Source: Flavobacteriales bacterium (GTDB lineage Bacteria > Bacteroidota > Bacteroidia > Flavobacteriales_F > PHOS-HE28). From it: DNA of 54,774 bases. The stretch is from the NCBI GenBank assembly GCA_046595075.1, contig JBKJPT010000052.1:1-54774 (forward strand), in the 5' to 3' direction. This document shows, piece by piece, positions 33,175 through 54,774 of the stretch. A program made the translations under genes and the position numbers. The notes beneath the pieces are model-generated. The model was not told the DNA's origin. It was given only the letters and a program-made list of their open reading frames with translations, and did not search any database. Each line of letters starts with the position of its first letter. Position 1 is the stretch's first letter.

Positions 33175-36100
33175 ATGCAACTGGACGCGGGTACCGAGTT
33201 GGCGCAGGCCTATTTGGACCTGAAGCGGCAGTATGACGACCTCGTGAGCCGCAACCTCGCGGGCATTTTCCGCACTACGGTCGGTGGCCACTTCCTGGAA
33301 TGCAACGATGCCATGGCGCACATCCTTGGCTACGTCGACCGAGCCGACCTGCTCAAGCACAACGCACTGGACCTGTACCATACGCCAGAGGAGCGGGAAA
33401 GCTTCATCGAAGCGCTTGCTCGCGAGAAACGCCTGATCAATTACGAAATGCGGCTGAAACACCGCAGCGGCCGCGAGGTGTTCGTGCTAGAGAACGTCTT
33501 CCTCGACGAAGAGAGCGGCCGCAGCGCCACAGTGCAGGGCATGCTCATCGACATCACCGCCTACCGCCAGGCCGAAGCCGAGCAACGAGCTCTCATGGCC
33601 AGCTACCGAAGCCTTGTGGAACTTATCCGCGAAGGATTGATGGTGGTAGCACAAGGACGCGTGCTTTACGCCAACCCAGCAGCAGAACAACTTCTTGGGA
33701 ACCGCACCACGGGTCAAGACCTCCTTCCTCTGTTCCTTGCCGATGACCGGCCCGCGATCGAAGAAGTCTTGAGCGCAACACTTCCATCCAGCACCACCGC
33801 TCCGATACGCGTGAGGCTCATGCGCCACCCCGACCGCGAACTGCTCTTCACCTGTGTCGCCACGCTCCATAATGGCGCGCCCGCGGTACAGGTGACACTA
33901 CAGGACCAAAGCGCACAACAGCATCTTGTGCGCGAGCGCGTGCGGCTGCAAATGGCGGAAGAGGTGAACCAAGTGCTGCGCGAAGAGATCGCCGAGCACC
34001 GCAGGACACAGGACGCGTTGCGTCGGTCAAGGAGGTTTGCGCGCAACCTCATCGATAGTTCGTTGGACATGATCATGGCCGCAGACCCCGACGGCCTCAT
34101 CACCGAATACAATCCGGCGGCAAGCATGCGCTTCGGTTACGAAGCGGAGGAGGTGATCGGCATGGACACCCAGAAATTGTACGCCGACCCCAAAGAGTAC
34201 TTGCGGGTACAGCAAGAACTGGACACGCACGGCGCATATGCCGGAGAAGTGCGCAACGTGGACAAGTACGGCAACGGGTTCACCTCCTTCCTTGCTGCCT
34301 CACGCCTCTTCGATGAGGAGGGTCAGCCTATTGGTGCCATGGGCGTATCTCGGGATATAACGCGCACCAAACACGACCAAGAAGCACTGCGGATCAGCGA
34401 GGAGCGCTACCGTGACCTCTTCGAGAACGCCACCGACCTGATCCAAAGCGTGGATACTGATGGCCGGTTCGAATACGTGAACGATGCTTGGCGCCGGATC
34501 CTTGGTTATTCCCAGGAAGACGTGGAGCGCCTCACGATCTGGGATGTGGTTCACCCCGACCATCGCGCATCGTGCGAGGGCTTGTTCGAAAGGGTCATGC
34601 GCGGCGATGACCCCGGGCAGATCCGCACCGCGTTCCGCACCAAGGACCGACGTACGGTAATAGTGGAGGGAACCATCAACCTGCGCAGCAGCGAGGGTAG
34701 GCCTATGGCTACACGCAGCATCTTCAGGGACATTACCGGTGTACTTGCTGCGCGGCAACAAGTGCAAGAGCACGAAGCAAAATTGCGCGCGCTGTTCGAG
34801 AGCAGCGAACACATGTTCTGGACAGTGGGCCCCGGCGTGCGGCTCACCTCCTTCAACAAAGGCTATGGCGACATGATCGAGCGACTGCACGGAGGGCGTC
34901 CCGAGATCGATACCGACCCCGCGAGGCCTCGGAAGAAGTTCGCCAGCCAGAGCTACCACGATTTCTGGGAGACGAAGTACGCCGAAGCCTTCGCTGGCAA
35001 ACCCATCCGGTTCGAAACAGACCTCCTCGACAAGCGTGAAGAACGCGTGTGTAATGAGGTGTTCCTGAGTCCTGTTTTCGATACCGAAGGCCGCGTGACC
35101 GAGGTCTTTGGTGTGGGCCACGAGATCACCGAGCAAAAAGTGGCGGAGGACCTCGTGCGCGCACAGGCTGCGCGCCTGAAGGCCATCTTCGAAAGCTCGG
35201 CCAACATGATGATCTGGACCCTGGACAAGGAAATGCGCATCACTTCGTGCAACGAGCACTTCCTTCGCACGATCGAGCACACGCACGCTATTCGGTTCAA
35301 CGTGGGCGACCACTTCGCCGAACGCATGGCCGCCCGGATCGCTCCTGACCGCGCCAAGGTGTTGTTGGTGAACTACGCCAACGCGCTGCGCGGCAAACCA
35401 CAGCAGTTCGAAGTGGAACTCGTCGACCTGCATGGCCAGCCCGCATGGGTGGAGAACTTCCTCAACCCCATTGTTTTGGATGGCGAAGTTCAGGAGATCT
35501 CGTGCCTTGCATACGGCATCACCGATCGCAAGCAAGCACAGCGCGAACTGGAACAGGGCCTCAGCGAGAAAGAGGTACTACTGAAGGAAGTGCATCACCG
35601 CGTGAAGAACAACCTGCAGGTGATCAGTAGCATCATGAATTTGCAGAGTGCCAAAGTGGACGACGACCCCCGGCTGAAGGAGATCCTACACCATAGTCGC
35701 GACCGCATCCGCAGCATGTCGCTGATCCATGAAAGCCTCTATCAGACCAAGCAGTTCAGCCTCATCGACATGAACAGCTATGTCGAAGGCCTCGCGCGCA
35801 ATTTGGTGATGAGCTACAGCCTCAGCGGCCGGATCGAACTGTCACTGGACCTGCCGAAGGACCGGGTGTACCTGGTGCTCGATCAAGCCATTCCCTGCGG
35901 CCTCATCCTCAACGAACTTATAAGCAACTCGCTCAAGCACGCATACCCCGGAGATGGTAGCGGACCCGTGCGCGTATCACTGGGCCTCTCTGGAGAAAGC
36001 GTGCGGATCGCTGTCGCGGACGATGGCGTGGGGGTGGATGATAAGGCCGCACAGCGCGAGGGTAGCCTCGGTCTCGAACTCGTGGGCATGTTGGTGGAAC

Positions 36101-36219
36101 AGCTCGATGGTCACCTGGATCGCAGCGATCGACCAGGGGTAACGTATTTGCTTACTTTTGAACGTCTCAAGAACAACAGCAGAAATGGCGCAGACGAACG
36201 TCCTCGTAGTGGAAGATGA
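33175..36219 (+). CDS. Cytoplasmic multi-PAS sensor histidine kinase (HisKA_2/HWE type)
   Basis: About six PAS/PAC repeats and no TM segment; H box LLKEVHHRVKNNLQVI, N box LNELISNSLKHAY, DDGVG, SLGLELV. Confidence 0.9.
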   Translation: MQLDAGTELAQAYLDLKRQYDDLVSRNLAGIFRTTVGGHFLECNDAMAHILGYVDRADLLKHNALDLYHTPEERESFIEALAREKRLINYEMRLKHRSGREVFVLENVFLDEESGRSATVQGMLIDITAYRQAEAEQRALMASYRSLVELIREGLMVVAQGRVLYANPAAEQLLGNRTTGQDLLPLFLADDRPAIEEVLSATLPSSTTAPIRVRLMRHPDRELLFTCVATLHNGAPAVQVTLQDQSAQQHLVRERVRLQMAEEVNQVLREEIAEHRRTQDALRRSRRFARNLIDSSLDMIMAADPDGLITEYNPAASMRFGYEAEEVIGMDTQKLYADPKEYLRVQQELDTHGAYAGEVRNVDKYGNGFTSFLAASRLFDEEGQPIGAMGVSRDITRTKHDQEALRISEERYRDLFENATDLIQSVDTDGRFEYVNDAWRRILGYSQEDVERLTIWDVVHPDHRASCEGLFERVMRGDDPGQIRTAFRTKDRRTVIVEGTINLRSSEGRPMATRSIFRDITGVLAARQQVQEHEAKLRALFESSEHMFWTVGPGVRLTSFNKGYGDMIERLHGGRPEIDTDPARPRKKFASQSYHDFWETKYAEAFAGKPIRFETDLLDKREERVCNEVFLSPVFDTEGRVTEVFGVGHEITEQKVAEDLVRAQAARLKAIFESSANMMIWTLDKEMRITSCNEHFLRTIEHTHAIRFNVGDHFAERMAARIAPDRAKVLLVNYANALRGKPQQFEVELVDLHGQPAWVENFLNPIVLDGEVQEISCLAYGITDRKQAQRELEQGLSEKEVLLKEVHHRVKNNLQVISSIMNLQSAKVDDDPRLKEILHHSRDRIRSMSLIHESLYQTKQFSLIDMNSYVEGLARNLVMSYSLSGRIELSLDLPKDRVYLVLDQAIPCGLILNELISNSLKHAYPGDGSGPVRVSLGLSGESVRIAVADDGVGVDDKAAQREGSLGLELVGMLVEQLDGHLDRSDRPGVTYLLTFERLKNNSRNGADERPRSGR

Positions 36220-36940
36220 AAGCATTGTGAGCAAGGACATCCAGCACAGTTTGAAGAAACTGGGCTACAATGTGGTTGGCGCAGCGAGTACTGGCGAACA
36301 GGCCGTAGCACTGGCGACCGAGCACATGCCGGACATTATTCTCATGGACATCATGCTCAAGGGAGAGATGAACGGGATAGAGGCCGCCGACAACATCCGG
36401 CGCACCACGAACATCCCGGTGATCTTCCTCACCGCCTATGCCGACGAGAGCACGCTCGCGAAGGCCAAGGTGACACAGCCCTACGGATACATCATCAAGC
36501 CGTTCAAAGAGATCGACATCCACACGTCGATAGAGATGGCGCTTTACAAGCACAAGAAGGAGACAGAGGTGCTCAAGGAACGCGACCTCCTATACGCACT
36601 CGTGGAAAGCAAGGAGAGCGGCAAGGACCTCCTCTTTGTGAAGAGCAACAGCCGCTTGGTGAAGTTGAAGACGAGCGACATCTACTTCATCGAAGCTTTG
36701 AAGGACTACGTGGTGATCAACACGCTCAACACACGCTACACGGTGCACAGCACTATGAAGGATATCGAGGCGAAGTTGCCCGAAGTAGAGTTCATTCGCG
36801 TACACCGCAGCTTCATCGTGCGAGTGGACAAGATCATGGCGATCGAACAACCCAATCTGATCCTGGAGAACGACAAAAAGGCGATCCCCATCGGCGGTAG
36901 CTACAAGGACGACCTGGCCAAGCGCCTCAACTTGGTTTAG
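36185..36940 (+). CDS. LytTR-family response regulator
   Basis: REC domain VLVVEDE..LMDI..FLTA..YIIKPF; LytTR domain IYFIEALKDYV, FIRVHRSFIV. Confidence 0.92.
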   Translation: MAQTNVLVVEDESIVSKDIQHSLKKLGYNVVGAASTGEQAVALATEHMPDIILMDIMLKGEMNGIEAADNIRRTTNIPVIFLTAYADESTLAKAKVTQPYGYIIKPFKEIDIHTSIEMALYKHKKETEVLKERDLLYALVESKESGKDLLFVKSNSRLVKLKTSDIYFIEALKDYVVINTLNTRYTVHSTMKDIEAKLPEVEFIRVHRSFIVRVDKIMAIEQPNLILENDKKAIPIGGSYKDDLAKRLNLV

Positions 36941-45106: not shown

Positions 45107-46894
45107 ATGGCCATGCGCATGACCATCGGGCGGAAGATCGGAATGGGCTTCGGTCTGTTCATCTTCTTCGCCTTGCTCGTGGTGGTGCTCACCAATCGCA
45201 CACTGGAACGCAGCCGGGGTATCAACGAGGAGATCAATCAGGTTTATTCCCCCTCGGTGGATGCGCTCGTTCGCCTGCGCAACCTCACCGTGAGTACGCA
45301 TATGCTGATCAAGCACTGGGCTTTGCTCGAAAGCCGCGCGGACGCACCGGAAAAGACAGAGCTGGTGGAGATCACCACGCAGGACCTTCCGCAACTGCTC
45401 GATCGCGTGGACACCCTGATGGCGCACTGGGGTCGCGATGAAGTAGCGTTGATGAACCAGGTCTCTGCCGAGCTCGACGCGCTCTTCGTGTTGCACGAGC
45501 AGATCAAGACCATGTTGCCCTCACTGGAAAGCTATCGAGACCCGTTCGTGCACATGCAGCGCAATGATCTCGCCGAAGAAGGCGGTCCGTTGGATCAACA
45601 GACCCGGAAGGTGCTCGACGAACTGGACCACCTGCTGGAGTTGCAGGAGACCAAACGACGTGAACTCGGCGGCGGGATGATCCGCAGCTTCGACTCGCTC
45701 AAGTTCTTCGTGCTCTACATGGGCATTGCGTTGGTGGTGATCGGCCTCATCGTGGCCTTCGTCATCGTGCGCGACATCGTTGCGCCGGTGCAACGCCTGC
45801 GTCTTGTGCTCTTGAGCCTTGGCCGCGGCGTGTTCCCGCGCACCAAGGTGCGCACCACCAACGACGAGATCGGCGATATGAGCAAGGCGCTCACCTCGCT
45901 GGTGGAGGGGTTGCGGCGCACTACCGACTTCTCACACTCGGTGGCCGCGGGCAACTTCGAAGCGAGCTACCAACCGTTGAGCGAAGAGGACGTGTTGGGG
46001 CATGCGTTGCTAAAGATGCGCGACGAGCTCGGCCAACGCGAGCGCATCTTGGAACTGAAAGTGGTGGAGCGCACCGAGGAGGTGGTTCGGCAGAAGGAGG
46101 AAGTGGAACGGCAGAGCCGCAAGGTGGTTGAACTGTACAAGAACGTTACCGATAGCATCCGGTACGCGAAGCGACTACAGGAGTCCATACTGCCACCGGA
46201 GCGACGGATAAAGGAGATGCTACCGGAGACCTTCGTGTACTACAGACCAAAGGACATCGTGAGCGGCGACTTCTATTGGTTCGAACGCATCGACGATAAA
46301 ATTGTGTTCGCTGCGGTGGACTGCACCGGGCACGGCGTGCCCGGTGCTTTCATGAGCCTGATCGGCCACAATGGACTGAATCAGGCCGCGAAGGAGCGTA
46401 ACCGATCCCGCCCGAGCGAAGTGCTCGCTGACCTCAACCGCATCGCCTACGAAGCCCTGCACAAGGACCGGGAGCAATACCTGGTACGCGACGGCATGGA
46501 CATGGCCCTTTGCAGTTACGACCCCGCACGCGGCGTGCTGGAATATGCAGGAGCGAACTGCCCCCTGTATCTCGTTCGCGAAGGACAGGTGCTTCCCTTC
46601 GCGCCGGACAAGAACGCCATTGGCAGCTTCGACCTCACGGGACATGCATTCACCGACCACCGCATCCGGCTGCAATCGGGCGACATGGTGTACATCTTCT
46701 CCGATGGGTATCCCGATCAGTTCGGAGGTCCAAAGGGGAAGAAGTTCCTCTACCGTCGCTTCCGCGAGCTGCTGGTGGAGATCAGCACGTACCCTGTGGA
46801 TCGCCAGCGCAACATGCTCAACGATGAATTCAATGCGTGGCGCGGCGCCCACGAACAAGTGGACGACATCCTTGTGATCGGGATGCGCGCTTGA
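45107..46894 (+). CDS. Membrane sensor PP2C/SpoIIE (RsbU-like) phosphatase: TM-periplasmic helical sensor-TM-HAMP-SpoIIE
   Basis: Two TM segments, HAMP (PVQRL...DEIGDM), YAKRLQESILP, KDIVSGDFYW, DCTGHGVPGA, DGMD, FSDGYPDQFGG, DDILVIG. Confidence 0.9.
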   Translation: MAMRMTIGRKIGMGFGLFIFFALLVVVLTNRTLERSRGINEEINQVYSPSVDALVRLRNLTVSTHMLIKHWALLESRADAPEKTELVEITTQDLPQLLDRVDTLMAHWGRDEVALMNQVSAELDALFVLHEQIKTMLPSLESYRDPFVHMQRNDLAEEGGPLDQQTRKVLDELDHLLELQETKRRELGGGMIRSFDSLKFFVLYMGIALVVIGLIVAFVIVRDIVAPVQRLRLVLLSLGRGVFPRTKVRTTNDEIGDMSKALTSLVEGLRRTTDFSHSVAAGNFEASYQPLSEEDVLGHALLKMRDELGQRERILELKVVERTEEVVRQKEEVERQSRKVVELYKNVTDSIRYAKRLQESILPPERRIKEMLPETFVYYRPKDIVSGDFYWFERIDDKIVFAAVDCTGHGVPGAFMSLIGHNGLNQAAKERNRSRPSEVLADLNRIAYEALHKDREQYLVRDGMDMALCSYDPARGVLEYAGANCPLYLVREGQVLPFAPDKNAIGSFDLTGHAFTDHRIRLQSGDMVYIFSDGYPDQFGGPKGKKFLYRRFRELLVEISTYPVDRQRNMLNDEFNAWRGAHEQVDDILVIGMRA

Positions 46895-46897
46895 GCG

Positions 46898-47737
46898 CTA
46901 TTGGAACGTCCAGCCGCCGCCGGAGCCGGTGTCGCGCGGGTTCATGCACATCACCGGGATCTGAGCTTCGTTGGTGATCACCTCCTGCTCGTAGGGCACC
47001 CCAAGCACACCGAAGATGTTTCCTTGCGAAAGGTTCATGATCGCAATGAGGTCGGCATCCATGGCCACGGCGTGCTTCACCACAGCCTCTACGAAATCGC
47101 CGCTGTCCTTGTCCGCGATGGTGGCGTCGTGCGTAATGCCGCGGCCATCCAAGTACTGGTTTGCGAACTTGATATGGTTCACCAACTGCTTGTGCAAAAA
47201 TTCATCCTCCTCCTTCGGCGTGATCAGGTGCACCTTGCTGTTGAAGTACTTCGCCATGTCGGCCACAAGCGTAAGCTTCTGGCGGGTCTCTTGATGCAGG
47301 TCCAAGGGCACCACGATGGAATCATAACCACCGTCCTTTATCGGCCGCTCTTGGACCACCACGAACGGAACATTGCTGCTGGTGATGACGCGCAACGCAC
47401 GGCTACCGGTGAGGAACTGCATGCCGCGCATGCCATGCGTACCCATCACGATCAGGTCGGCGCCGATCTCCGAAGCCGCATCGCCGATATCATCGAAAAT
47501 GCTTCCTACACGAACCAGCTTGAACACCGGGACCGCAACGTCTAGTTTTTGGGCCCGAGCAACTTCCATTTCCAGCTTGCGCCGCGTGTCGTCCACATCG
47601 TCCTGGGAGGGCACAACATGCAGCAGGTACACCTCACCCTTGGTGTGCGAAGCAAGCTTCATGGCATGGCCGATCGCATTGTCGGCAACGTGGGTGAAAT
47701 CCGTGGGAACAAGGATCTTGGTCGTCTTGCCGCTCAT
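46898..47737 (-). CDS. Tandem-domain universal stress protein
   Basis: KILVPTDF, LLHVV, ADLIVMGTHG..GS; second domain SIVVPLD...ADLIAIM...IPVMC. Confidence 0.9.
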   Translation of the reverse strand: MSGKTTKILVPTDFTHVADNAIGHAMKLASHTKGEVYLLHVVPSQDDVDDTRRKLEMEVARAQKLDVAVPVFKLVRVGSIFDDIGDAASEIGADLIVMGTHGMRGMQFLTGSRALRVITSSNVPFVVVQERPIKDGGYDSIVVPLDLHQETRQKLTLVADMAKYFNSKVHLITPKEEDEFLHKQLVNHIKFANQYLDGRGITHDATIADKDSGDFVEAVVKHAVAMDADLIAIMNLSQGNIFGVLGVPYEQEVITNEAQIPVMCMNPRDTGSGGGWTFQ

Positions 47738-47840
47738 CTTCCGGTCGTTTGCTTGTACGGGTCGCGCTTCTTGCAGGCGTTTTCCCCGGTTCATCGGGGG
47801 CGGCTAAAGTAGCGATCAATACCCCTTGAGCAGGCGTCCG

Positions 47841-47917
47841 ACAAACGGCGGCAAACGCCAATGAACGATTACAAACGACGAACGGACGGATCGCCATTCC
47901 GCAACGCCGCTGCTTTG
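47841..47917 (+). promoter_or_regulatory. Four 10-bp-phased boxes plus degenerate -7 element upstream of ssb-1
   Basis: ACAAACG 47841, GCAAACG 47851, ATGAACG 47861, ACAAACG 47871; TTTG ends at 47917. Confidence 0.7.
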
Positions 47918-47963
47918 TCCCCGGAAGTCGGCAGGGTGCCGGCAACAACAAAAACCAACGACG

Positions 47964-48317
47964 ATGAAGAACAAAGTGCAACTGATGGGACACCTAGGCA
48001 ATGAGCCGGAGCTGAAGAAACTGGAAAGCGGGCAACACCTGCTGAAGCTGAGCCTGGCCACCAACGAACGCTTCCGCAGCGGCGAAGGTGAGTGGAAGGA
48101 GGATGTGCAGTGGCACCCGATCGTGGCGTGGGGCAAGCAGGCAGAACGCCTGGCCGCCATGGTGCACAAGGGTACCGGCCTGTTGGTGGAGGGCCGCCTC
48201 GTTCACCGGAAGTACGAAACCAAGGAGGGCGAGAAGCGCACGTTCACGGAGGTGGTGCTCACGGACTTCTATCTGCTCGCTGCCAAGGAGGCGGCAGTGG
48301 CGGAATTCAATGCTTGA
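47964..48317 (+). CDS. ssb: Short single-stranded DNA-binding protein lacking the acidic C-terminal tail (paralogue 1)
   Basis: NKVQLMGHLGNEPE, LATNE, QWHPIVAWG, VEGRL..RKY, TEVV; 117 aa with no DDLPF-type tip. Confidence 0.92.
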   Translation: MKNKVQLMGHLGNEPELKKLESGQHLLKLSLATNERFRSGEGEWKEDVQWHPIVAWGKQAERLAAMVHKGTGLLVEGRLVHRKYETKEGEKRTFTEVVLTDFYLLAAKEAAVAEFNA

Positions 48318-49503
48318 TGATGCGGATCACCGAAGAGCGTTCGGGTGTTGAGAGGTGCAACAAGTACGGACCCGCCTCAAGCGAGGAGAGGTCCAGCCTT
48401 GCGCTACCAACGCCCGCGCTTTTCGGTGGTGTGAGCGCCGTGCGCCCGAGCGCATCAAGCACAACGGCTCGCGCAAGTAGCGCATCGGCACCGATCACCA
48501 TTATCACGTCGGTGCACGGGTTCGGGAAAACAACCCAAGAGTTGTTCGCAGAGGGTTCCTCTAGGCCCACGAGTTGTGGCCATACCGTATGGCACACGGT
48601 GCTCACGCAAGTGTCGCCCAAGAGAGGTCCCCAAGCGCGTAAGGTGCCGCATAATTGGAACTCGCCCTCAACAGGGTACGCATGCACGGCTACGCTGCCT
48701 GTGGCAAGTGCACCATCGCCGAAGTCCCACTCAATGGAGCTATACATGCCCGAGGTGCGCGAAGTGTCCAGCACGCCGACCAAGTTGTCCGCTTGCAGTA
48801 GCCAATAACCCTGATCGATCAATTGCGCACACTCCACATTACCCGGCCCCAAGTACAACCACTGGCACAAGGTGGCCGAGCAGTAGGGGTCCGAACTCAT
48901 TAAGGTGAGGCAGATCTCGAAAGGACCCGGCCCGACGAAAGTGTTAGTAGGGGTGGAGGTGGTGGCTCCTGCACCGTCGCCAAAGGACCATGTCTCCTGA
49001 TCGATCAAGCCGGCGAAGGTCGAGGTGCTGACGAAGGTCACGGTTTGGCCATCAACGGCGGCGATGTCGAAGTTGGCTACGAGCGATGTACAGAGCACGT
49101 CAGAAACGGGAGTGATCAGGTCGCACACCGTGGTGCTGCAGGGTTGCTGTGCCTCCAGATCATAAGCGTTCACAGTAAGGCACACGGGGTACTCTTCCTG
49201 CCAAGGGAAGTACAACTCGAAGGGAGTATTGTACGCTTGAGTGAAGGTCCCATTGTAGTAGTAGGTCCACACCAAGTCCTGCACTTGGGTTGACCCCGGA
49301 ATGATCACTGGATCGAACACGCAGTTGTATCCATTGAGCAAAGTGGTGGCAATGCTCACGTGCATGGAAGTATCGCAGGTCTGCAGGGTGCCGCCGCCGC
49401 GTTCTTGCGTGCGGTCAGAGTATAGTTGCGCGTGCGCTATGGAGCTGGCGGCGAAGCAAGCAGCCACGGTACAGGATCGTATGTGACGGGGTAAGCCGAT
49501 CAT
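48307..49503 (-). CDS. Cys-rich PKD-domain protein with T9SS type A CTD
   Basis: Signal peptide, WSFGDG and WDFGDG PKD motifs, CTD VFPNPC...LDALGR...AGPYLL. Confidence 0.85.
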   Translation of the reverse strand: MIGLPRHIRSCTVAACFAASSIAHAQLYSDRTQERGGGTLQTCDTSMHVSIATTLLNGYNCVFDPVIIPGSTQVQDLVWTYYYNGTFTQAYNTPFELYFPWQEEYPVCLTVNAYDLEAQQPCSTTVCDLITPVSDVLCTSLVANFDIAAVDGQTVTFVSTSTFAGLIDQETWSFGDGAGATTSTPTNTFVGPGPFEICLTLMSSDPYCSATLCQWLYLGPGNVECAQLIDQGYWLLQADNLVGVLDTSRTSGMYSSIEWDFGDGALATGSVAVHAYPVEGEFQLCGTLRAWGPLLGDTCVSTVCHTVWPQLVGLEEPSANNSWVVFPNPCTDVIMVIGADALLARAVVLDALGRTALTPPKSAGVGSARLDLSSLEAGPYLLHLSTPERSSVIRIIKH

Positions 49504-50903
49504 AGGTAGTGGCAAAGTTGAAAACGGATACCGAGTCTTTCAGGGGTTGCCTGCAATGCCCCCTGCGCGCCCGGTACGAAACCGCGCGCATAGTGTGGTG
49601 TTGCCAACAATGTCCAGCGCTCGTGCAATGCAAAGCCGAGGTCGGCACCAATAAGGCCGGTGACGCAAGTGGGGTAGCGGGCCGCAACGACTTCAGCGCT
49701 CAGCGCAGTAGAATAGATGTGACCATCCTCATCGGCCTGCACCAATGAAGAGGTCGAACGAACGCGGTTGATCTCTGCCATGGTACCAACGCGCACTCCC
49801 AACACCCAGCGGCGCAAGCCCACATGCCAGTAGGCCTCCAACGGAACACGAACCGTAGTGCGTTGATCCAGTCCTTGAGCGTCGTACTCGCGCACTACGT
49901 TGTTGCTTAGCGTGTCGTAGACCATGGCGATCACCGTGGTGTTAAGGGTGACCATGTTGGCGATCACGGTGTGCTCTTGTACGATGTTGTGCTCGAGGTG
50001 CCGGTAGGCCTGCTCGGTCTGCTCCACTTCCACCCCAAGCCCGGCACCCAAGCCCGAACGCCAGCGCCTGCCGACCATGATGCCCAAAGCGGCGGAAGGG
50101 CTGAGGCTCTCCGCTTTGTTCAGCGCATCTGCCAACCGCGTCGAAGTACCCTCCCAGTTGTGCTTGGCCGCGTATGCGCACAGGTGTGACGCCAGCCACC
50201 AATCGCCATGAGGCAGCACGTAAGTTTCGGGGATCATCGCACGATGAACTTCCCCGGCAATGACCGCGGGTTCCAGACCAACATGATTCCCCATCAAGCG
50301 GAACGCATCTTCGGTTTCAATTGCAACGACAGGAACCCCTGGGGTTAGCGCCAGACCGCCGTTGTTGACCTCGGCTGCGGTCCCGAGCTCATTGGGCGAG
50401 CTCAACGGCTCTTCATGGACTACGCCCAGTTGCGTAGCAACCCCTTCGTCACCAACCGGAACAGTTGTCGGAAGTGTACGAGCCTCTTGCCCACCGGAAA
50501 AGTTCCTAGGCCGCGGTCCTTCGGCACCAGGTCCACTGCGCACGTGTGTGTCGGGTACATCTGCTGTTGATGGATGGACGCCTTCCTCCAAGTGAATGAC
50601 CGAGGTCTCTGCGCCGCTCGTTTTCGGAGCCCGCAACCCAACGTCGTTCGCAAGATCAACAGCGGACACGCCCGAGCCTTGCTCAACCCTGCCTGCACCA
50701 TTGTTCACGAACCAATATCCAGCGGGGCTAAGCAGGAGCAATAGCAGAGCAAGGGTCATGCGCGACCGTTTGCGCCACAGCGTGCGTTTATATCCACGCT
50801 GTGCCCCAGCGAGGATCGCTGCACGCAGGCGCGCTGGAGGCTCAGCGGGTATCCCGCTCAGCTCGTGCTTGAAAAAGTCATCAATGGGATGCTGCTCCCG
50901 CAT
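49500..50903 (-). CDS. Putative anti-sigma factor: N-terminal ASD, TM helix, disordered linker, C-terminal outer-membrane beta-barrel
   Basis: IDDFFKHEL..AEPP; TM LALLLLLLSPAGYW; ~150-aa low-complexity linker; alternating amphipathic strands ending LGIRFQLCHYL; overlaps the ECF sigma gene. Confidence 0.7.
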   Translation of the reverse strand: MREQHPIDDFFKHELSGIPAEPPARLRAAILAGAQRGYKRTLWRKRSRMTLALLLLLLSPAGYWFVNNGAGRVEQGSGVSAVDLANDVGLRAPKTSGAETSVIHLEEGVHPSTADVPDTHVRSGPGAEGPRPRNFSGGQEARTLPTTVPVGDEGVATQLGVVHEEPLSSPNELGTAAEVNNGGLALTPGVPVVAIETEDAFRLMGNHVGLEPAVIAGEVHRAMIPETYVLPHGDWWLASHLCAYAAKHNWEGTSTRLADALNKAESLSPSAALGIMVGRRWRSGLGAGLGVEVEQTEQAYRHLEHNIVQEHTVIANMVTLNTTVIAMVYDTLSNNVVREYDAQGLDQRTTVRVPLEAYWHVGLRRWVLGVRVGTMAEINRVRSTSSLVQADEDGHIYSTALSAEVVAARYPTCVTGLIGADLGFALHERWTLLATPHYARGFVPGAQGALQATPERLGIRFQLCHYL

Positions 50904-51444
50904 AGGCCGGTGTGTTCTTGGCGTGGATCTTCAGTTGCAATAGTCGTCGGGCCTTTGCCAATTGGCTGCGCGAGGTGCTTTCACCGCAGCCCAGTAGGTC
51001 GGCGATCTCCGCATGGTCATATCCCTCGATCGCGAAGAGATTGAACACCGTGCGGTAACCGTCCGGAAGCGAGGCGATCATGTCCAATAGCTCCTGTTGG
51101 CCCAGCCGGCCCATGGCATCAGCTTCCACAGGCTCCTCTGGCAGGCGCTCCAGCCCAAAGCGCTCTTGCTGGAAGGATTTCTTGCGGTAGTGGTTGATCG
51201 CAGTGTGGACCATGATCCGGCGGACCCAGCCCTCCAAGGACCCCTCCATGCGGAAATCCTTCAGCCTCTCGTACACCCTTATGAATGCTTCCTGCATGAT
51301 GTCCTCAGCCTCCATTTCGTGCCGTGCGTACCGCAAGCACACTGCGTACATGCGGCGCGCGAAGCGGTCATAAAGGGTTTCCTGGCAGCGACGATCGCCG
51401 CTCAGGCATCCCTTTATCAGTTCGTGTTCGGTGGGTTCACGCAA
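50881..51444 (-). CDS. ECF RNA polymerase sigma factor
   Basis: MYAVCLRY, AEDIMQEAFI, SLEGWVRRI, LPDGYRTVFNLFAIEGYDHAEIA, TSRSQLAKARRLL. TTG start at 51444 is inferred. Confidence 0.93.
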   Translation of the reverse strand: MREPTEHELIKGCLSGDRRCQETLYDRFARRMYAVCLRYARHEMEAEDIMQEAFIRVYERLKDFRMEGSLEGWVRRIMVHTAINHYRKKSFQQERFGLERLPEEPVEADAMGRLGQQELLDMIASLPDGYRTVFNLFAIEGYDHAEIADLLGCGESTSRSQLAKARRLLQLKIHAKNTPAYAGAASH

Positions 51445-51572
51445 CCGGTGGCCTCTTAATGCACAAGACAACGCACCTATGCTGGATGCTGCCCGGAGCT
51501 AGAGACTGCATACAAGATAGGAATCCGGGTACTGCGGTTGGCTGAACGGCGTAGAAGTCCGGGGACCGGTCA

Positions 51573-51649
51573 ACAAATGACAGCAAACGGCTGTAATCGC
51601 CTACAAATGAAAATCGACCGGCTCCCCCTTCTTCCCCAGCCAACGTTTG
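51573..51649 (+). promoter_or_regulatory. Four 10-bp-phased boxes plus degenerate -7 element upstream of ssb-2
   Basis: ACAAATG 51573, GCAAACG 51583, GTAATCG 51593, ACAAATG 51603; TTTG ends at 51649. Confidence 0.7.
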
Positions 51650-51711
51650 CATCGGCTCCGGTTTCAGCACCGGGTCAGCAACGAAAAGTCGAACCCTAAA
51701 ACACAAGTCCC

Positions 51712-52068
51712 ATGAACACGCTGAAGAACAAAGTGCACCTCGTTGGCAACCTCGGTTTCGATCCCGAAGTGCGGGAGATCGCCAAGGGGCGAAAGGTTGC
51801 CCGCCTCTCGGTAGCCACCAATGACAGCTACCGCAATGCCAGCGGCGAGCGCGTTACCGACACCCAATGGCATACCGTGGTGGCCTGGGGCCAAACCGCC
51901 GAAATGGTGGAGCGCTTGCTGCGGAAAGGATCGCCCGTGATGCTGGAGGGGCGATTGGTTCACCGCAGCTACGAAGCCAAGGATGGCAGCAAGCGTTACA
52001 TCACCGAGGTAGTGATGAACACCTTCCAGGTCTTGCCGGGCAAGCAAGAGGGGGCGGCGGCAGCTTAA
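51712..52068 (+). CDS. ssb: Short single-stranded DNA-binding protein lacking the acidic C-terminal tail (paralogue 2)
   Basis: NKVHLVGNLGFDPE, VATND, QWHTVVAWG, LEGRL..RSY, RYITEVV; 118 aa. Confidence 0.93.
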   Translation: MNTLKNKVHLVGNLGFDPEVREIAKGRKVARLSVATNDSYRNASGERVTDTQWHTVVAWGQTAEMVERLLRKGSPVMLEGRLVHRSYEAKDGSKRYITEVVMNTFQVLPGKQEGAAAA

Positions 52069-52093
52069 GGGCGACCATTGGTCGGCGGACAGA

Positions 52094-52125
52094 AGAAGGG
52101 GCGGCCATCATCGGCCGCCCCTTCT
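52094..52125. terminator. Probable bidirectional terminator between convergent ssb-2 and the PKD gene
   Basis: 13-bp perfect stem AGAAGGGGCGGCC / GGCCGCCCCTTCT. Confidence 0.75.
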
Positions 52126-52152
52126 CATTTATTGAAGCTCAACGCCCACTGT

Positions 52153-54774
52153 TCATTCAATAGCGACCCGCCTCCATAGGCTTCCCTCGGCGGTCCGCAC
52201 TTCCACCGAGTAGATCGCGGGAGCAAGTGTTGTAACGTCCACCATCGTGCGCGCACTGTTGGTGCGTTGCGCCAGTACCAAGCGACCCTCTGTGGAGAAG
52301 ACCCGTAGGTCCGCCCCCAAAGGAGCACCGTCGATGATGAACGAGTTATGCGCAGGGTTAGGGAACAAATGCACCAGCCCGATCGCAGCCTCGTTGATCC
52401 CTACATCGAACGGGTCGATCTCCTCACAATGTTCGGCCCAGCAGGTGTCTTGTGTGGCGTTGTTCCAGTACCAAGCCGCAAGGCACACATTGTATGGGCC
52501 GGGTGGCTCGTAGAGGTGCGTGATCACTTGGCCGTATCCCTGGTCGCTTCCATCGCCGAAGAACCAGATGTAGCCCACCACCGGAACGCTGGAGGTGGCT
52601 TGTAAAATGGTTGCCGTGCCTTGAGAGGTCGCAGTGAAATCTATCTCGAACGGCTCGCAACCACCGGGCCCCTCGACCACAATGGTCGTGCAGGTTGTGT
52701 CGGTGCAATTCTCCCAATAGGCCGTGAGGCACACCTCGTAGGTGCCTGGCCCTGCATAGGTGTGATCGGCGTTGATCCCGCCACTGGTCGCACCGTCTCC
52801 GAAGTTCCACAGGTACTGGATGTTGGTGTTTGGCGATGTGCAGTTAACGAAGTAGAAGCTGTTGTTGTCGATCACCGTTGTGGTGAAGCAGGCTTGGAGA
52901 TCATCGCAGGGATCGCCACCTCCCTCGATCGTGACTTCATAGCAAGTGGTGTCGGCACAAGTGATCACGCCGCCACCGGCAAGTTCATAAATGCTCACAG
53001 CTGTGAGGCACACCACGTAGACGCCGGGCTCGAGGTAGGTATGGAAAGGCTGCGCGTCATCGCTGATGCCACCATCGCCGAAAGTCCAATACCAGTTCGT
53101 TTGGAAACCGACGCCCACCGTTCCATTGCTGAACTGCGTACCGTTCGGCGTGGTTGTCCAGGTGAAGCCAGCTTCAAGGCCATCGCAAGGGTCGGTGCCG
53201 CCACCGGTGACCGTTATTGTTGTGCAGGTGGTGTCCGTGCAATTTCCCCAATAGGCGGTGAGGCAAACCTCGTAGGTGCCGGGCTCGCTGTAGTTGTGGT
53301 CGGGGTTCACGCCGCCACTGGTCGCGCCATCGCCGAAATTCCACACGTACTGGATGTTGGTGCTGGGTGTGGTGCAGTTGACGAAGTAGAAGCTGTTGTT
53401 GTCGATCGCCTCTGTGGTGAAGCAGGCTTGGAGCTGATCGCAAGGATCACCACCGCCCTCTATCACCACGTCATAGCAAGTGGTATCGGCACAAGTGATC
53501 ACGCCGCCGCCGCTCAGTTCGTAGATGCTCACCACCGTGAGGCACGCCACGTAGACACCGGGCTCGAGGTAAGTGTGCACCGTTGATTGAGCGGTGCTCG
53601 TTCCACCATCACCGAAGTTCCAGTACCAAGTGGTCTGGAAGCCGGTGCCATTAGAGCCGTTGAGGAAGTAGGTGCCGTTGGGGGTTGTGGTCCAGGTGAA
53701 GGCCGCTTGCAATCCATCGCAAGGATCGGTGCCGCCACCAGTAACGGTCACTGTGGTGCACGTGCTGTCCACGCAATTCCCCCAATACGCGGTGAGGCAC
53801 ACTTCGTATGTACCGGGTTCAGCAAAGCTGTGTTCGGCGTTCACGTCGCCGCTGGCGCTACCATCGCCGAAGTGCCACTCGTATTGAATGTTGGTGCCTG
53901 GCGTTGTGCAGTTCACGAAGTAGAAGCTGTTGTTGTCGATCACTTCCGTGGTGAAGCAGGCTTCGAGATCGTCGCAGGGGTCACCTCCAAGAATGGTCAC
54001 CAACTGGCAACTTGTTTCGGAACAAGTGTCCTGCGTTGTGGGATCCCACGCCCAAACCGTGAGGCACATTTCATAGGTGCCTGCAGCGGCATAGGTGTGC
54101 GTGCCTTGTGGGCCGTTGTCCGAATAGGTGCCATCGCCGAAACTCCAGATCCAATTCGGGCCAGCGCCTGTGGTCGCGGAATAGAAGATGCTCGCCGGAT
54201 CACCGCCGTTGTTGCCGAACCAGAATTCGGCGCTGAGCCCATCACATGGATCCGCGCCGCCGTCGATCACAACAGCATTGCAGGTCGTATCCGCGCAAGT
54301 GAGCAACACGCCGCTGCCCGTGTTGTACACCGTGAGCGCGTACAGGCACACTTCATAGGTGCCCGGCGCTGCATACGTGTGGAGGGGTTGTGCATCGTTA
54401 CTCGTGCCGCCGTCGCCGAAGGTCCAATACCAGGTGGTCGACTGTCCTGTCCCGGTGGTGCCATTGCTGAACTGCGTTCCGTTCGGCGTGGCGGTCGAGG
54501 TGAATCCAGCTTCGAGTTCATCACACGGATCAGTGCCGCCCTGCACCACTAACGGCAAGCAGAACGTGTCCTCACAACCATTGCCATAAGCGGTCACGCA
54601 AACCGTGTAGGTGCCGGGCTGATCATAGATGTGCGTGGGCGCAGTGCCCGATCCATTGGCGCCGTCGCCGAAGGTCCACAGGTATTGCGTGTTGGTGCCG
54701 GGCTGCGAGCAGTTGAGGAAGGCGATGGTGTTCGGGTTGGTCTGCAATGCTTCGAAGCACGCCTCGAAGCCGTC
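52153..54774 (-). CDS. Large Cys-rich poly-PKD repeat protein with T9SS type A CTD, 5'-truncated by the window edge
   Basis: Frame open to 54774 (DGFEACFEALQTN...); at least 9 PKD modules (WxFGDG...HxY..PGxYxVCL); CTD LFPNPA...FSTEGR...PAIYSV. Confidence 0.9.
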   Translation of the reverse strand, partial: DGFEACFEALQTNPNTIAFLNCSQPGTNTQYLWTFGDGANGSGTAPTHIYDQPGTYTVCVTAYGNGCEDTFCLPLVVQGGTDPCDELEAGFTSTATPNGTQFSNGTTGTGQSTTWYWTFGDGGTSNDAQPLHTYAAPGTYEVCLYALTVYNTGSGVLLTCADTTCNAVVIDGGADPCDGLSAEFWFGNNGGDPASIFYSATTGAGPNWIWSFGDGTYSDNGPQGTHTYAAAGTYEMCLTVWAWDPTTQDTCSETSCQLVTILGGDPCDDLEACFTTEVIDNNSFYFVNCTTPGTNIQYEWHFGDGSASGDVNAEHSFAEPGTYEVCLTAYWGNCVDSTCTTVTVTGGGTDPCDGLQAAFTWTTTPNGTYFLNGSNGTGFQTTWYWNFGDGGTSTAQSTVHTYLEPGVYVACLTVVSIYELSGGGVITCADTTCYDVVIEGGGDPCDQLQACFTTEAIDNNSFYFVNCTTPSTNIQYVWNFGDGATSGGVNPDHNYSEPGTYEVCLTAYWGNCTDTTCTTITVTGGGTDPCDGLEAGFTWTTTPNGTQFSNGTVGVGFQTNWYWTFGDGGISDDAQPFHTYLEPGVYVVCLTAVSIYELAGGGVITCADTTCYEVTIEGGGDPCDDLQACFTTTVIDNNSFYFVNCTSPNTNIQYLWNFGDGATSGGINADHTYAGPGTYEVCLTAYWENCTDTTCTTIVVEGPGGCEPFEIDFTATSQGTATILQATSSVPVVGYIWFFGDGSDQGYGQVITHLYEPPGPYNVCLAAWYWNNATQDTCWAEHCEEIDPFDVGINEAAIGLVHLFPNPAHNSFIIDGAPLGADLRVFSTEGRLVLAQRTNSARTMVDVTTLAPAIYSVEVRTAEGSLWRRVAIE
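52700..53990 (-). repeat. Intragenic 534-bp-period tandem duplication (two-PKD unit)
   Basis: GTGAAGCAGG at 52883, 53417 and 53951 (534-bp spacing); repeated IDNNSFYFVNCT and GGGVITCADTTCY blocks. Boundaries approximate. Confidence 0.85.

Follow-up and report, generated by a model that had tools for sequence, protein, structure and literature searches.

A 54,774-nucleotide (nt) piece of DNA from a Flavobacteriales bacterium (assembly GCA_046595075.1, contig JBKJPT010000052.1 from position 1), called the window, carries two genes for short, tail-less single-stranded DNA (ssDNA)-binding proteins (SSBs), ssb-1 (47964..48317, + strand) and ssb-2 (51712..52068, + strand). Both are preceded by an array of short direct repeats with the same spacing, which raises the question of what such an array does and which protein would read it. 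As argued below, we regard it as an evenly balanced proposition that this module is a factor-dependent promoter of the tail-less SSB, for which a small zinc-ribbon protein would be the likeliest factor.

Upstream of ssb-1, the boxes ACAAACG (47841-47847), GCAAACG (47851-47857), ATGAACG (47861-47867) and ACAAACG (47871-47877) formed an array with an exact 10-bp period (47841..47877, + strand). The ssb-2 array (51573..51609, + strand) consisted of ACAAATG (51573-51579), GCAAACG (51583-51589), GTAATCG (51593-51599) and ACAAATG (51603-51609), also with an exact 10-bp period. In both copies, a TTTG ended 46 nt past the start of box 4 (at 47917 and 51649). The 8-mers ending in this TTTG, CTGCTTTG (47910..47917, + strand) and AACGTTTG (51642..51649, + strand), resembled a -7 element that had kept its TTTG and carried no leading TA. 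A preliminary description of this DNA had reported four RYAAAYG-type boxes in phase, a TTTG at a fixed distance and -7 elements without TA; the first two can be read directly from both genes and the third holds for every site aligned below. A fifth, degenerate element followed the boxes of ssb-1 (47878..47891, + strand), and its CG (47887-47888) was placed 29 nt ahead of the G of TTTG, at the Bacteroidota -33 position. The fifth element of ssb-2 (51610..51623, + strand) contained CCGG at 51618-51621, with G 51620 again 29 nt ahead of the G of TTTG. We used as reference the sigma-A consensus -33 TTTG / -7 TAnnTTTG, taken from a passage of PMC9723704. Since the same passage places the sigma-A -7 box of Flavobacterium psychrophilum at -12 to -5, we infer that transcription would start about 5 nt past the TTTG at both genes, at ~47922 and ~51654. 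Relative to these predicted starts, the boxes spanned about -80 to -44 and the CG of the fifth element lay at the -33 position. The predicted leaders, 47918..47963 (+ strand; small hairpin at 47927-47943) and 51650..51711 (+ strand), comprised a hairpin and then an A/C-rich tract ahead of the ATG codons at 47964 and 51712. The leader hairpins noticed beforehand did fold (-10.8 kcal/mol for ssb-1 and -11.5 kcal/mol for ssb-2), but they were no stabler than shuffled sequences (z -0.05 and -0.46, respectively). For 47 orthologous leaders, z averaged -1.44 over the opening 42 nt, with 14 of the 47 below -2, and RNAalifold found no consensus pairs in 35 leaders. An Rfam scan of 47700-52200 at E <= 1 produced two sub-threshold chance matches, both outside the promoter regions; the ssb-associated RNA motif STAXI (PMC2864571) was ruled out because the promoters had no Rfam match.

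The arrays were exclusive to the two ssb genes. When both strands of the genome (3.67 Mb, 298 contigs, 59% G+C) were searched, four RYRAWYG boxes at 10-bp period were found just at these two sites, as were three RYRAWYG boxes or two RCAAAYG boxes at the same period. Base composition predicts 4e-5 four-box arrays per genome, and the frequency at which single boxes were observed predicts 5e-4. We aligned 49 of 52 examined short-ssb upstream regions over 89 nt (alignment A2), consisting of the ssb-2 and ssb-1 orthologues of the genus plus five loci of other families. The module was present in all 49, and the remaining three regions were truncated or interrupted. From A2 we built a sequence-only covariance model (R1) that contained no coding sequence. 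R1 matched ssb-1 at 47840-47923 (E 1.6e-15) and ssb-2 at 51571-51656 (E 8.1e-18), with no match beyond these two sites across the genome at E <= 1.

Alignment A2 defined the anatomy of the module. Its three or four boxes followed the consensus ACAAACG / GCAAACG / ATGAACG / ACAAAYG, usually with a T ahead of each, which yields an overall direct repeat (T)RYAAACG at 10-bp period, all on one face of the helix; in a minority of sites the first two boxes were 11 bp apart. Past the boxes came ACTGGCCGRAT or GATCRACCGRAT, a fifth repeat 11-12 bp further on in which the CG was invariant (columns C50 and G51, the CG of the ssb-1 fifth element). The -7 element read nnnnTTTGC, its TT invariant and its TG nearly so, and none of the 49 sites had a TA at its head. 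The distance from the invariant CG to TTTG was a constant 29 nt from G to G, leaving a gap of 24 nt between CCGR and TTTG, while TTTG lay at +46 or +47 from box 4. Since this one-base difference falls between box 4 and CCGR, the latter seems to be positioned by the core promoter and not by the boxes. A G-to-G distance of 29 nt is the widest usual spacing between the -33 TTTG and the -7 TAnnTTTG of Bacteroidota promoters, and CCGR would therefore occupy the -33 position. The departure of the core from the sigma-A consensus, both at -33 and at the -7 TA, fits dependence on a factor. In addition, the conserved letters were the C and G of AACG together with the CG at -33, which argues for a protein-recognition site and not for bent DNA. 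Many A2 sites also showed TGAAYG right before TTTGC (51642-51645 in the window), a box-like word in the same orientation that overlaps the -7 element about 25 bp (2.5 turns) from CCGR and is mostly missing in the ssb-1 clade.

The module was conserved well beyond this genome. R1 matched in 41 of 41 genomes of the genus, with one to three strong matches each. In a class sample of 151 genomes from 100 genera (E <= 0.01), matches were obtained in 66 genomes and 48 genera. Downstream of the module and on its strand, each of the best 29 class loci carried an ssb homologue, whose ATG was within about 40-150 nt of the module in 28 of them and at ~830 nt in the other (L068). In a phylum sample of 151 genomes (E <= 1e-4), the 17 genomes with R1 matches all belonged to the class Bacteroidia and no module was found outside it. 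Searches across more than 40 genomes applied stricter filters, by which weak matches are lost.

Both window proteins were SSB OB domains, of 117 amino acids (aa) for ssb-1 (PF00436, E 5.9e-31) and 118 aa for ssb-2 (PF00436, E 9.5e-33), and scored 112 and 116 bits against TIGR00621 (cut-off 54). They shared 46% identity (52/113), close to the half that had been estimated by eye. Together with 16 others (alignment A4) they stopped 8-17 residues past the OB fold, with no linker and no acidic tip, and the short proteins retained the SSB signature including an invariant W-H pair. The third SSB of the genome was a canonical protein of 144 aa encoded on contig C169, with a linker and the C-terminus ...DEVDDLPF; its gene (L001) lay between mutY-like and gldE-like (CBS/CorC) open reading frames (ORFs), as judged from their translations. 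We searched 40 relatives and tallied the SSB matches of each; of the 24 from the same genus, 22 had three or four. The typical set of the genus comprised the canonical gene plus orthologues of ssb-2 and ssb-1 that shared a contig and were a few kb apart. In a quick tree, built from 81 rows and 113 columns with ssb-1 of the window not included, all short SSBs of the genus formed one clade with the ssb-1 type nested inside it (support of 99 in the Shimodaira-Hasegawa-like approximate likelihood-ratio test, SH-aLRT, for the clade). This topology suggests that ssb was duplicated in the genus together with its module and that both copies kept it; the duplicate would thus have taken its promoter along. 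The likeness of the two window promoters would then be due to common descent, and the selection that the preliminary description had claimed for boxes, phase and TTTG distance is better argued from orthologues. There the claim held: across the genus, the ssb-1 and ssb-2 orthologues have kept boxes, phase and distances despite the 46% protein identity and diverged spacers, and short ssb genes in many other families have kept them too. We put at half the chances of a proposal in which both arrays derive from a single ancient cis-regulatory module that serves the tail-less SSB of Bacteroidia as its dedicated promoter region. In several loci (L021-L023, L065, L066, L072, L090, L169) the short ssb occurred in two or three head-to-tail copies, with the module before the first copy only. 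The idea that the short SSB stands in for missing cold-shock proteins was dropped, as the genome has two cold-shock-domain genes over the cut-off, and PADLOC assigned none of its defence families to ssb-1, ssb-2 or the zinc-ribbon protein at E <= 0.01.

A candidate for the factor came from the neighbourhood of the module. When the ORFs of the 29 class loci were clustered, one family recurred besides ssb, namely an ORF of ~120 aa encoding a zinc-ribbon protein. Fourteen of these loci had it divergent from ssb, and the 160-260 bp between the two genes contained the module. Gene order in the class is otherwise fluid, yet this pairing recurred in many families. The genome under study had one copy, on contig C117 (C117:20271-20624), unlinked to ssb and 48 nt behind a TraB/GumN-like ORF. 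The gene was present in 92 of the 151 class genomes (a count that includes G134, flagged as unpublished). Among the 66 module-bearing genomes of the class, 65 carried it, the exception being G174, an assembly in 410 contigs; 27 genomes had the gene without a detected module and 58 had neither. A module match lay within 2.5 kb of the zinc-ribbon gene in 33 of the 66. Among the first 30 families listed, the gene was found in all 19 that had the module, and all seven that lacked the gene also lacked the module. In the phylum sample, the gene accompanied the module in all 17 module-bearing genomes, and no genome from beyond the class Bacteroidia yielded it. Co-occurrence was tallied by hand from the result tables, and the genomes are related, so that the counts overstate independence. 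A further set of 80 named loci included Flavobacterium, Cyclobacteriaceae, Saprospiraceae, Chitinophagales, Bacteroidales, Mucilaginibacter and others; a short ssb lay within 1.5 kb of the zinc-ribbon gene in 36 of them, always divergent, and the module stood between the two genes in 34 of the 36. In F. anhuiense, F. ginsengiterrae, F. succinicans and Salinimicrobium sediminis, the module was 1.6-4.8 kb from the zinc-ribbon gene, with a GNAT-nitrilase-like ORF between them in F. anhuiense. A -7-like TAnnTTT[GA] on the strand of the zinc-ribbon gene, between the array and its ATG, was seen in eight of 12 divergent loci, and the array thus probably also touches the promoter of this gene. Two loci (L182 in G119 and L183 in G183) had a short box array directly upstream of the zinc-ribbon gene and in its orientation, with a divergent ssb beyond; the usual ssb-oriented module was weak or rearranged in both.

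The zinc-ribbon protein has the appearance of a nucleic-acid binder, judging from its motifs and predicted structure. Its alignment (A3) showed an N-terminal CxxC...GRxDKKFCxDxCR ribbon with invariant GR.DKK.C.D.CR, then NNILRKNRRIL as a basic helix and, towards the C-terminus, the region FCYxYGY; the median isoelectric point was 9.25. The AlphaFold model was confident (predicted local distance difference test score, pLDDT, 87), and besides the zinc ribbon it had a pair of helices, of which the second was long and basic, as well as a small alpha/beta domain. Source annotations called the protein 'hypothetical' or 'predicted nucleic acid-binding Zn ribbon protein'. No Pfam or NCBIfam family reached its cut-off and no PDB profile exceeded the threshold. 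DUF2116 (20.5 bits vs 26.8), zf-FCS (17.9 vs 22.4) and YacG (14 vs 79) stayed below their curated cut-offs, and the resemblance to these three was limited to the CxxC...FCxxxC ribbon. ESM Atlas neighbours were unnamed Bacteroidota clusters only. Among PHROGs, the zinc-ribbon stretch matched within HNH-endonuclease families and also one unnamed family of 121 positions (E 4.6e-5). Foldseek returned nothing from the PDB at E <= 0.001 with the model as query. In VIA-align, winged-helix domains dominated, with a best Z of 4.6 (root-mean-square deviation 2.9, 64 aligned), which is the common background of this tool; the list comprised the cullin WHB domain, Stn1, DpnI, ChxR, DrrB, OmpR-C, IscR and Rpa2, several of which bind DNA (DpnI, ChxR, DrrB, OmpR-C, IscR) or associate with proteins that have an OB fold (Stn1, Rpa2). 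We take a winged-helix-like C-terminal part as a lead only.

These observations can be assembled into the following scheme. The core would be a poor sigma-A promoter, having neither the -33 TTTG nor the -7 TA. A sequence-specific protein would line the phased repeats head-to-tail along a single face of the helix, between about -80 and -33, and once bound would recruit or position RNA polymerase. It would thereby compensate for both missing elements by class-II-type activation, comparable to that of PhoB at pho boxes. Among possible factors, the basic, ~120-aa zinc-ribbon protein would be the likeliest, and the short SSB might serve to coat ssDNA briefly without recruiting tail-binding partners, our guess being under stress, after damage or during DNA uptake. 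The parts of this scheme are not equally firm. Judging from box position and core weakness, activation is somewhat favoured over repression, while the linkage and co-occurrence that point to the zinc-ribbon protein leave its identity as the factor a little short of an even chance. Several observations weigh against the scheme. The zinc-ribbon gene of this genome has no boxes of its own, so that autoregulation, common for dedicated regulators, was not seen. The 27 class genomes with the gene and no detected module fit it poorly, although some of them may be filter losses. No DNA-binding fold could be assigned to the protein, since Foldseek gave no hit, VIA-align stayed at Z <= 4.6 and no Pfam, NCBIfam or PDB match passed its threshold. 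The co-occurrence counts come from related, non-independent genomes, and the linkage would equally fit a partner that functions together with the SSB or a co-regulated divergent gene. Finally, the case for activation over repression has just two features behind it, namely the weak core elements and where the boxes lie (about -80 to -33).

A partner role leads to the alternative that survives best, although we judge it unlikely: the boxes would be bound by another regulator, of the OmpR/PhoB or LytTR type, and the zinc-ribbon protein would be a working partner of the SSB in an ssDNA or RNA unit, the two genes sharing a bidirectional control region. Response regulators typically bind sites made of direct repeats in tandem, spaced by the helical period, and candidates do exist, as the window encodes a REC-LytTR protein (36158-36940) and an ORF for an OmpR-type regulator, judged from its translation, lies near the zinc-ribbon gene on C117. 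The module also stays with ssb where the two genes are apart, and the zinc-ribbon protein belongs to no recognised DNA-binding family. However, none of the 29 class loci pointed to a response-regulator gene as a conserved neighbour, the zinc-ribbon ORF being the sole recurrent family; the 10-bp period differs from the 11 bp of pho boxes and the ~21 bp of LytTR sites; and the module was essentially never found without the zinc-ribbon gene (65/66 and 17/17 genomes). The LytTR regulator had been put forward as a possible box binder; it is a real REC-LytTR protein, but nothing links it to the boxes and it is not beside ssb in the loci of other genomes.

A zinc-ribbon factor could also act in the opposite sense. 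The array would then be an operator for a repressor, the zinc-ribbon protein or another one, and a self-active promoter would be shut by a filament over -80 to -33 and de-repressed on a signal, an explanation that we consider rather improbable. The last element does overlap the -33 position, and the TAnnTTT[GA] of the zinc-ribbon strand in eight of 12 divergent loci means that the array overlaps the presumptive promoter of that gene, as in autorepressed divergent regulators. Moreover, a passage of PMC8565304 places ssb under the control of a repressor, non-canonical LexA, in several Bacteroidetes species. Nevertheless, both TA and the -33 TTTG were missing in all 49 sites, which is unexpected for a promoter that is strong once de-repressed, the larger part of the array is situated upstream of the footprint of the polymerase, and the known SOS palindromes of Bacteroidetes were not found in either upstream region.

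The reading in which no dedicated factor exists has little left in its favour and we give it very low probability. In this case, the phased A-rich boxes would be bent DNA or a UP-like element, or an extracytoplasmic function (ECF) sigma factor would read the promoter, for example the one encoded beside ssb-2. AAA tracts at 10-bp period can bend DNA, and in this genus an ECF sigma gene is divergent from ssb-2 (50881..51471, - strand, assigned by Pfam). Against bending, the A runs are only three long and conservation reaches beyond the A-tracts, to the CG at -33 and to the last two letters of AACG. Against the sigma factor, this neighbour is genus-specific and missing from the loci of other families, the 24-nt gap between CCGR and TTTG exceeds the ~16-17 nt usual for ECF promoters, and TTTG is a hallmark of sigma-A according to a passage of PMC9723704.

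The least probable alternative, which retains hardly any credit, is a multi-gene regulon in which phased boxes switch on the short SSBs together with DNA-uptake or repair genes: secondary SSBs do belong to Firmicutes competence regulons, and ssb to the SOS regulons of several Bacteroidetes by the account in a passage of PMC8565304, but neither an array nor an R1 match occurred beyond the two ssb sites here, the inspected strong matches in 41 genus and 151 class genomes all preceded ssb, and the inspected extra weak matches could be traced to split modules, to a repeat element or to a phage-like contig. At the sequence level such a regulon is largely refuted. The preliminary description had expected the motif upstream of ssb orthologues and also of comEC/dprA/recA/radC-type genes; the first part was borne out and the second, for uptake and repair genes alike, was not. 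Specifically, the extra strong matches fetched in the genus (five loci) preceded further ssb copies, and of four weak box-only matches inspected in the genus two were halves of split modules, one lay on a 1.85-kb contig and one inside a long ORF. In the split modules (L035 with L057 in G017; L009 with L058 in G023), the boxes were ~4 kb from the CCGR/TTTG half and the junctions shared the same inverted end (…ctatataccagttgggacagg); they look like mobile-element insertions that detached the boxes from ssb-1 in G017 or from ssb-2 in G023. The site on the 1.85-kb contig (L059, G049:C317:458-491) had three perfect ACAAACG boxes at 10-bp period, ending 3 nt before the ATG of a 134-aa ORF and with no CCGR/TTTG part, and is possibly phage DNA or a mere A/C-rich translation leader. 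Two genomes of other families, G112 (23 R1 matches) and G164 (13), contained many ATAAACG-type arrays at 10-bp period inside a dispersed repeat (e.g. L174-L181), some copies lying at the ends of contigs and some having G/C-rich hairpins next to them; these may be binding-site decoys, miniature inverted-repeat transposable elements or plain 10-mer microsatellites.

The remaining genes around the two ssb copies give the locus a stress-signalling flavour, which is genus-specific. A tandem universal stress protein gene (46898..47794, - strand; PF00582, E 1.8e-25) is divergent from ssb-1. Between this gene and the boxes, orthologous loci shared a conserved 'ggctaaagata' (reverse complement TAtcTTTAg), a -7-like element for the stress gene. 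Just upstream of the ssb-1 region lies a gene for a HAMP-SpoIIE (PP2C-type) phosphatase (45107-46894, + strand). The ECF sigma gene divergent from ssb-2 is followed by an ORF of 467 aa with no family (49500-50903), and both neighbours were the same in the genus loci L065-L067 and absent from other families. A PKD-repeat protein is encoded at 48307-49515 (- strand), and its likeness to a type-IX-secretion C-terminal sorting domain was weak (23.2 bits vs a cut-off of 27). Past ssb-2, a terminator-like hairpin (52094..52125, + strand; 13 pairs, 10 of them G-C, with a T-rich tail) is followed by the gene for a larger PKD-repeat protein of more than 864 aa (52153-54774, - strand), open at the window end and with near-identical repeats of ~90 aa, as judged from the translation. 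Further away, a multi-PAS HisKA_2 histidine kinase gene (1014 aa) overlaps the start of that for the REC-LytTR regulator (260 aa; 33175-36940 for the pair, + strand).

Among known systems, the closest in architecture are the PhoB-dependent pho-box promoters of Escherichia coli, such as pstS, where tandem 7-bp direct repeats at about one helical turn, variable in number, run into and replace the -35 element of a promoter whose upstream hexamer is poor. The module differs from them in its 10-bp period (vs 11 bp, 7-bp repeats with 4-bp spacers), its RYAAACG motif and its Bacteroidota -33/-7 layout; moreover, no OmpR-family regulator is implicated and its target is one gene family instead of a regulon. 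An OmpR/PhoB-type site was accordingly rejected on the 10-bp period in the window and in most of the 49 sites and on the lack of a response-regulator neighbour, and a LytTR site (two 9-bp repeats 12-13 bp apart) because the boxes recur every 10 bp. The ComK-dependent ssbB (ywpH) of Bacillus subtilis likewise combines a secondary tail-less SSB beside a tailed one with phased A/T-rich boxes and a dedicated activator, but ComK boxes are AAAA-N5-TTTT dyads that drive a large competence regulon, whereas direct repeats at ssb only were found here. PriB of beta- and gamma-proteobacteria is a comparable SSB-derived OB protein of ~100-110 aa that lacks an acidic tail and coexists with a canonical SSB; unlike the short SSBs, which keep the SSB signature and have their own, predictedly regulated promoter, it is a dimer expressed constitutively from the rpsF-priB-rpsR operon. 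The SOS response of Bacteroidetes under non-canonical LexA, as described in a passage of PMC8565304, is similar in being a phylum-specific control that includes ssb in several species, yet its palindromic repressor sites are common to many repair genes, in contrast to a direct-repeat array at the short ssb only. [quoted passage not shown] In the literature, searched by full text with the tables supplementing PMC8565304 and PMC9723704 outside its scope, neither the box array nor the zinc-ribbon family turned out to be described. We rate as new the motif, its single-gene scope, which is unusual, and the candidate regulator of a new family, while the kind of element, a direct-repeat and factor-dependent promoter, is known.

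A broader interpretation, which we offer tentatively and would sooner doubt than assert, is that the tail-less SSB, the 10-bp array and the divergent zinc-ribbon protein make up a new two-gene unit that originated in Bacteroidia. In that case, the zinc-ribbon protein would represent a new family of transcription factors that bind head-to-tail along one side of the helix and stand in for the -33 element. The unit itself would give the class an inducible ssDNA-protection response of its own, to damage, DNA uptake or replication stress, in parallel to non-canonical LexA. Transcriptional control in Bacteroidota is little charted beyond sigma factors, hybrid two-component systems and non-canonical LexA. 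To these, the present analysis adds a sharply defined and easily testable cis-element that about one in two of the Bacteroidia genera sampled have kept, and a candidate regulator outside all described families, giving an uncharacterised class-wide protein a testable job. The carriers include cultivable species such as Flavobacterium anhuiense, F. succinicans, F. ginsengiterrae and Salinimicrobium sediminis, and the predictions are thus directly testable. Altogether, tail-less SSB paralogues would be a regular and separately controlled part of DNA metabolism in Bacteroidia, which raises the question of what an SSB does without the tail that recruits its partners.

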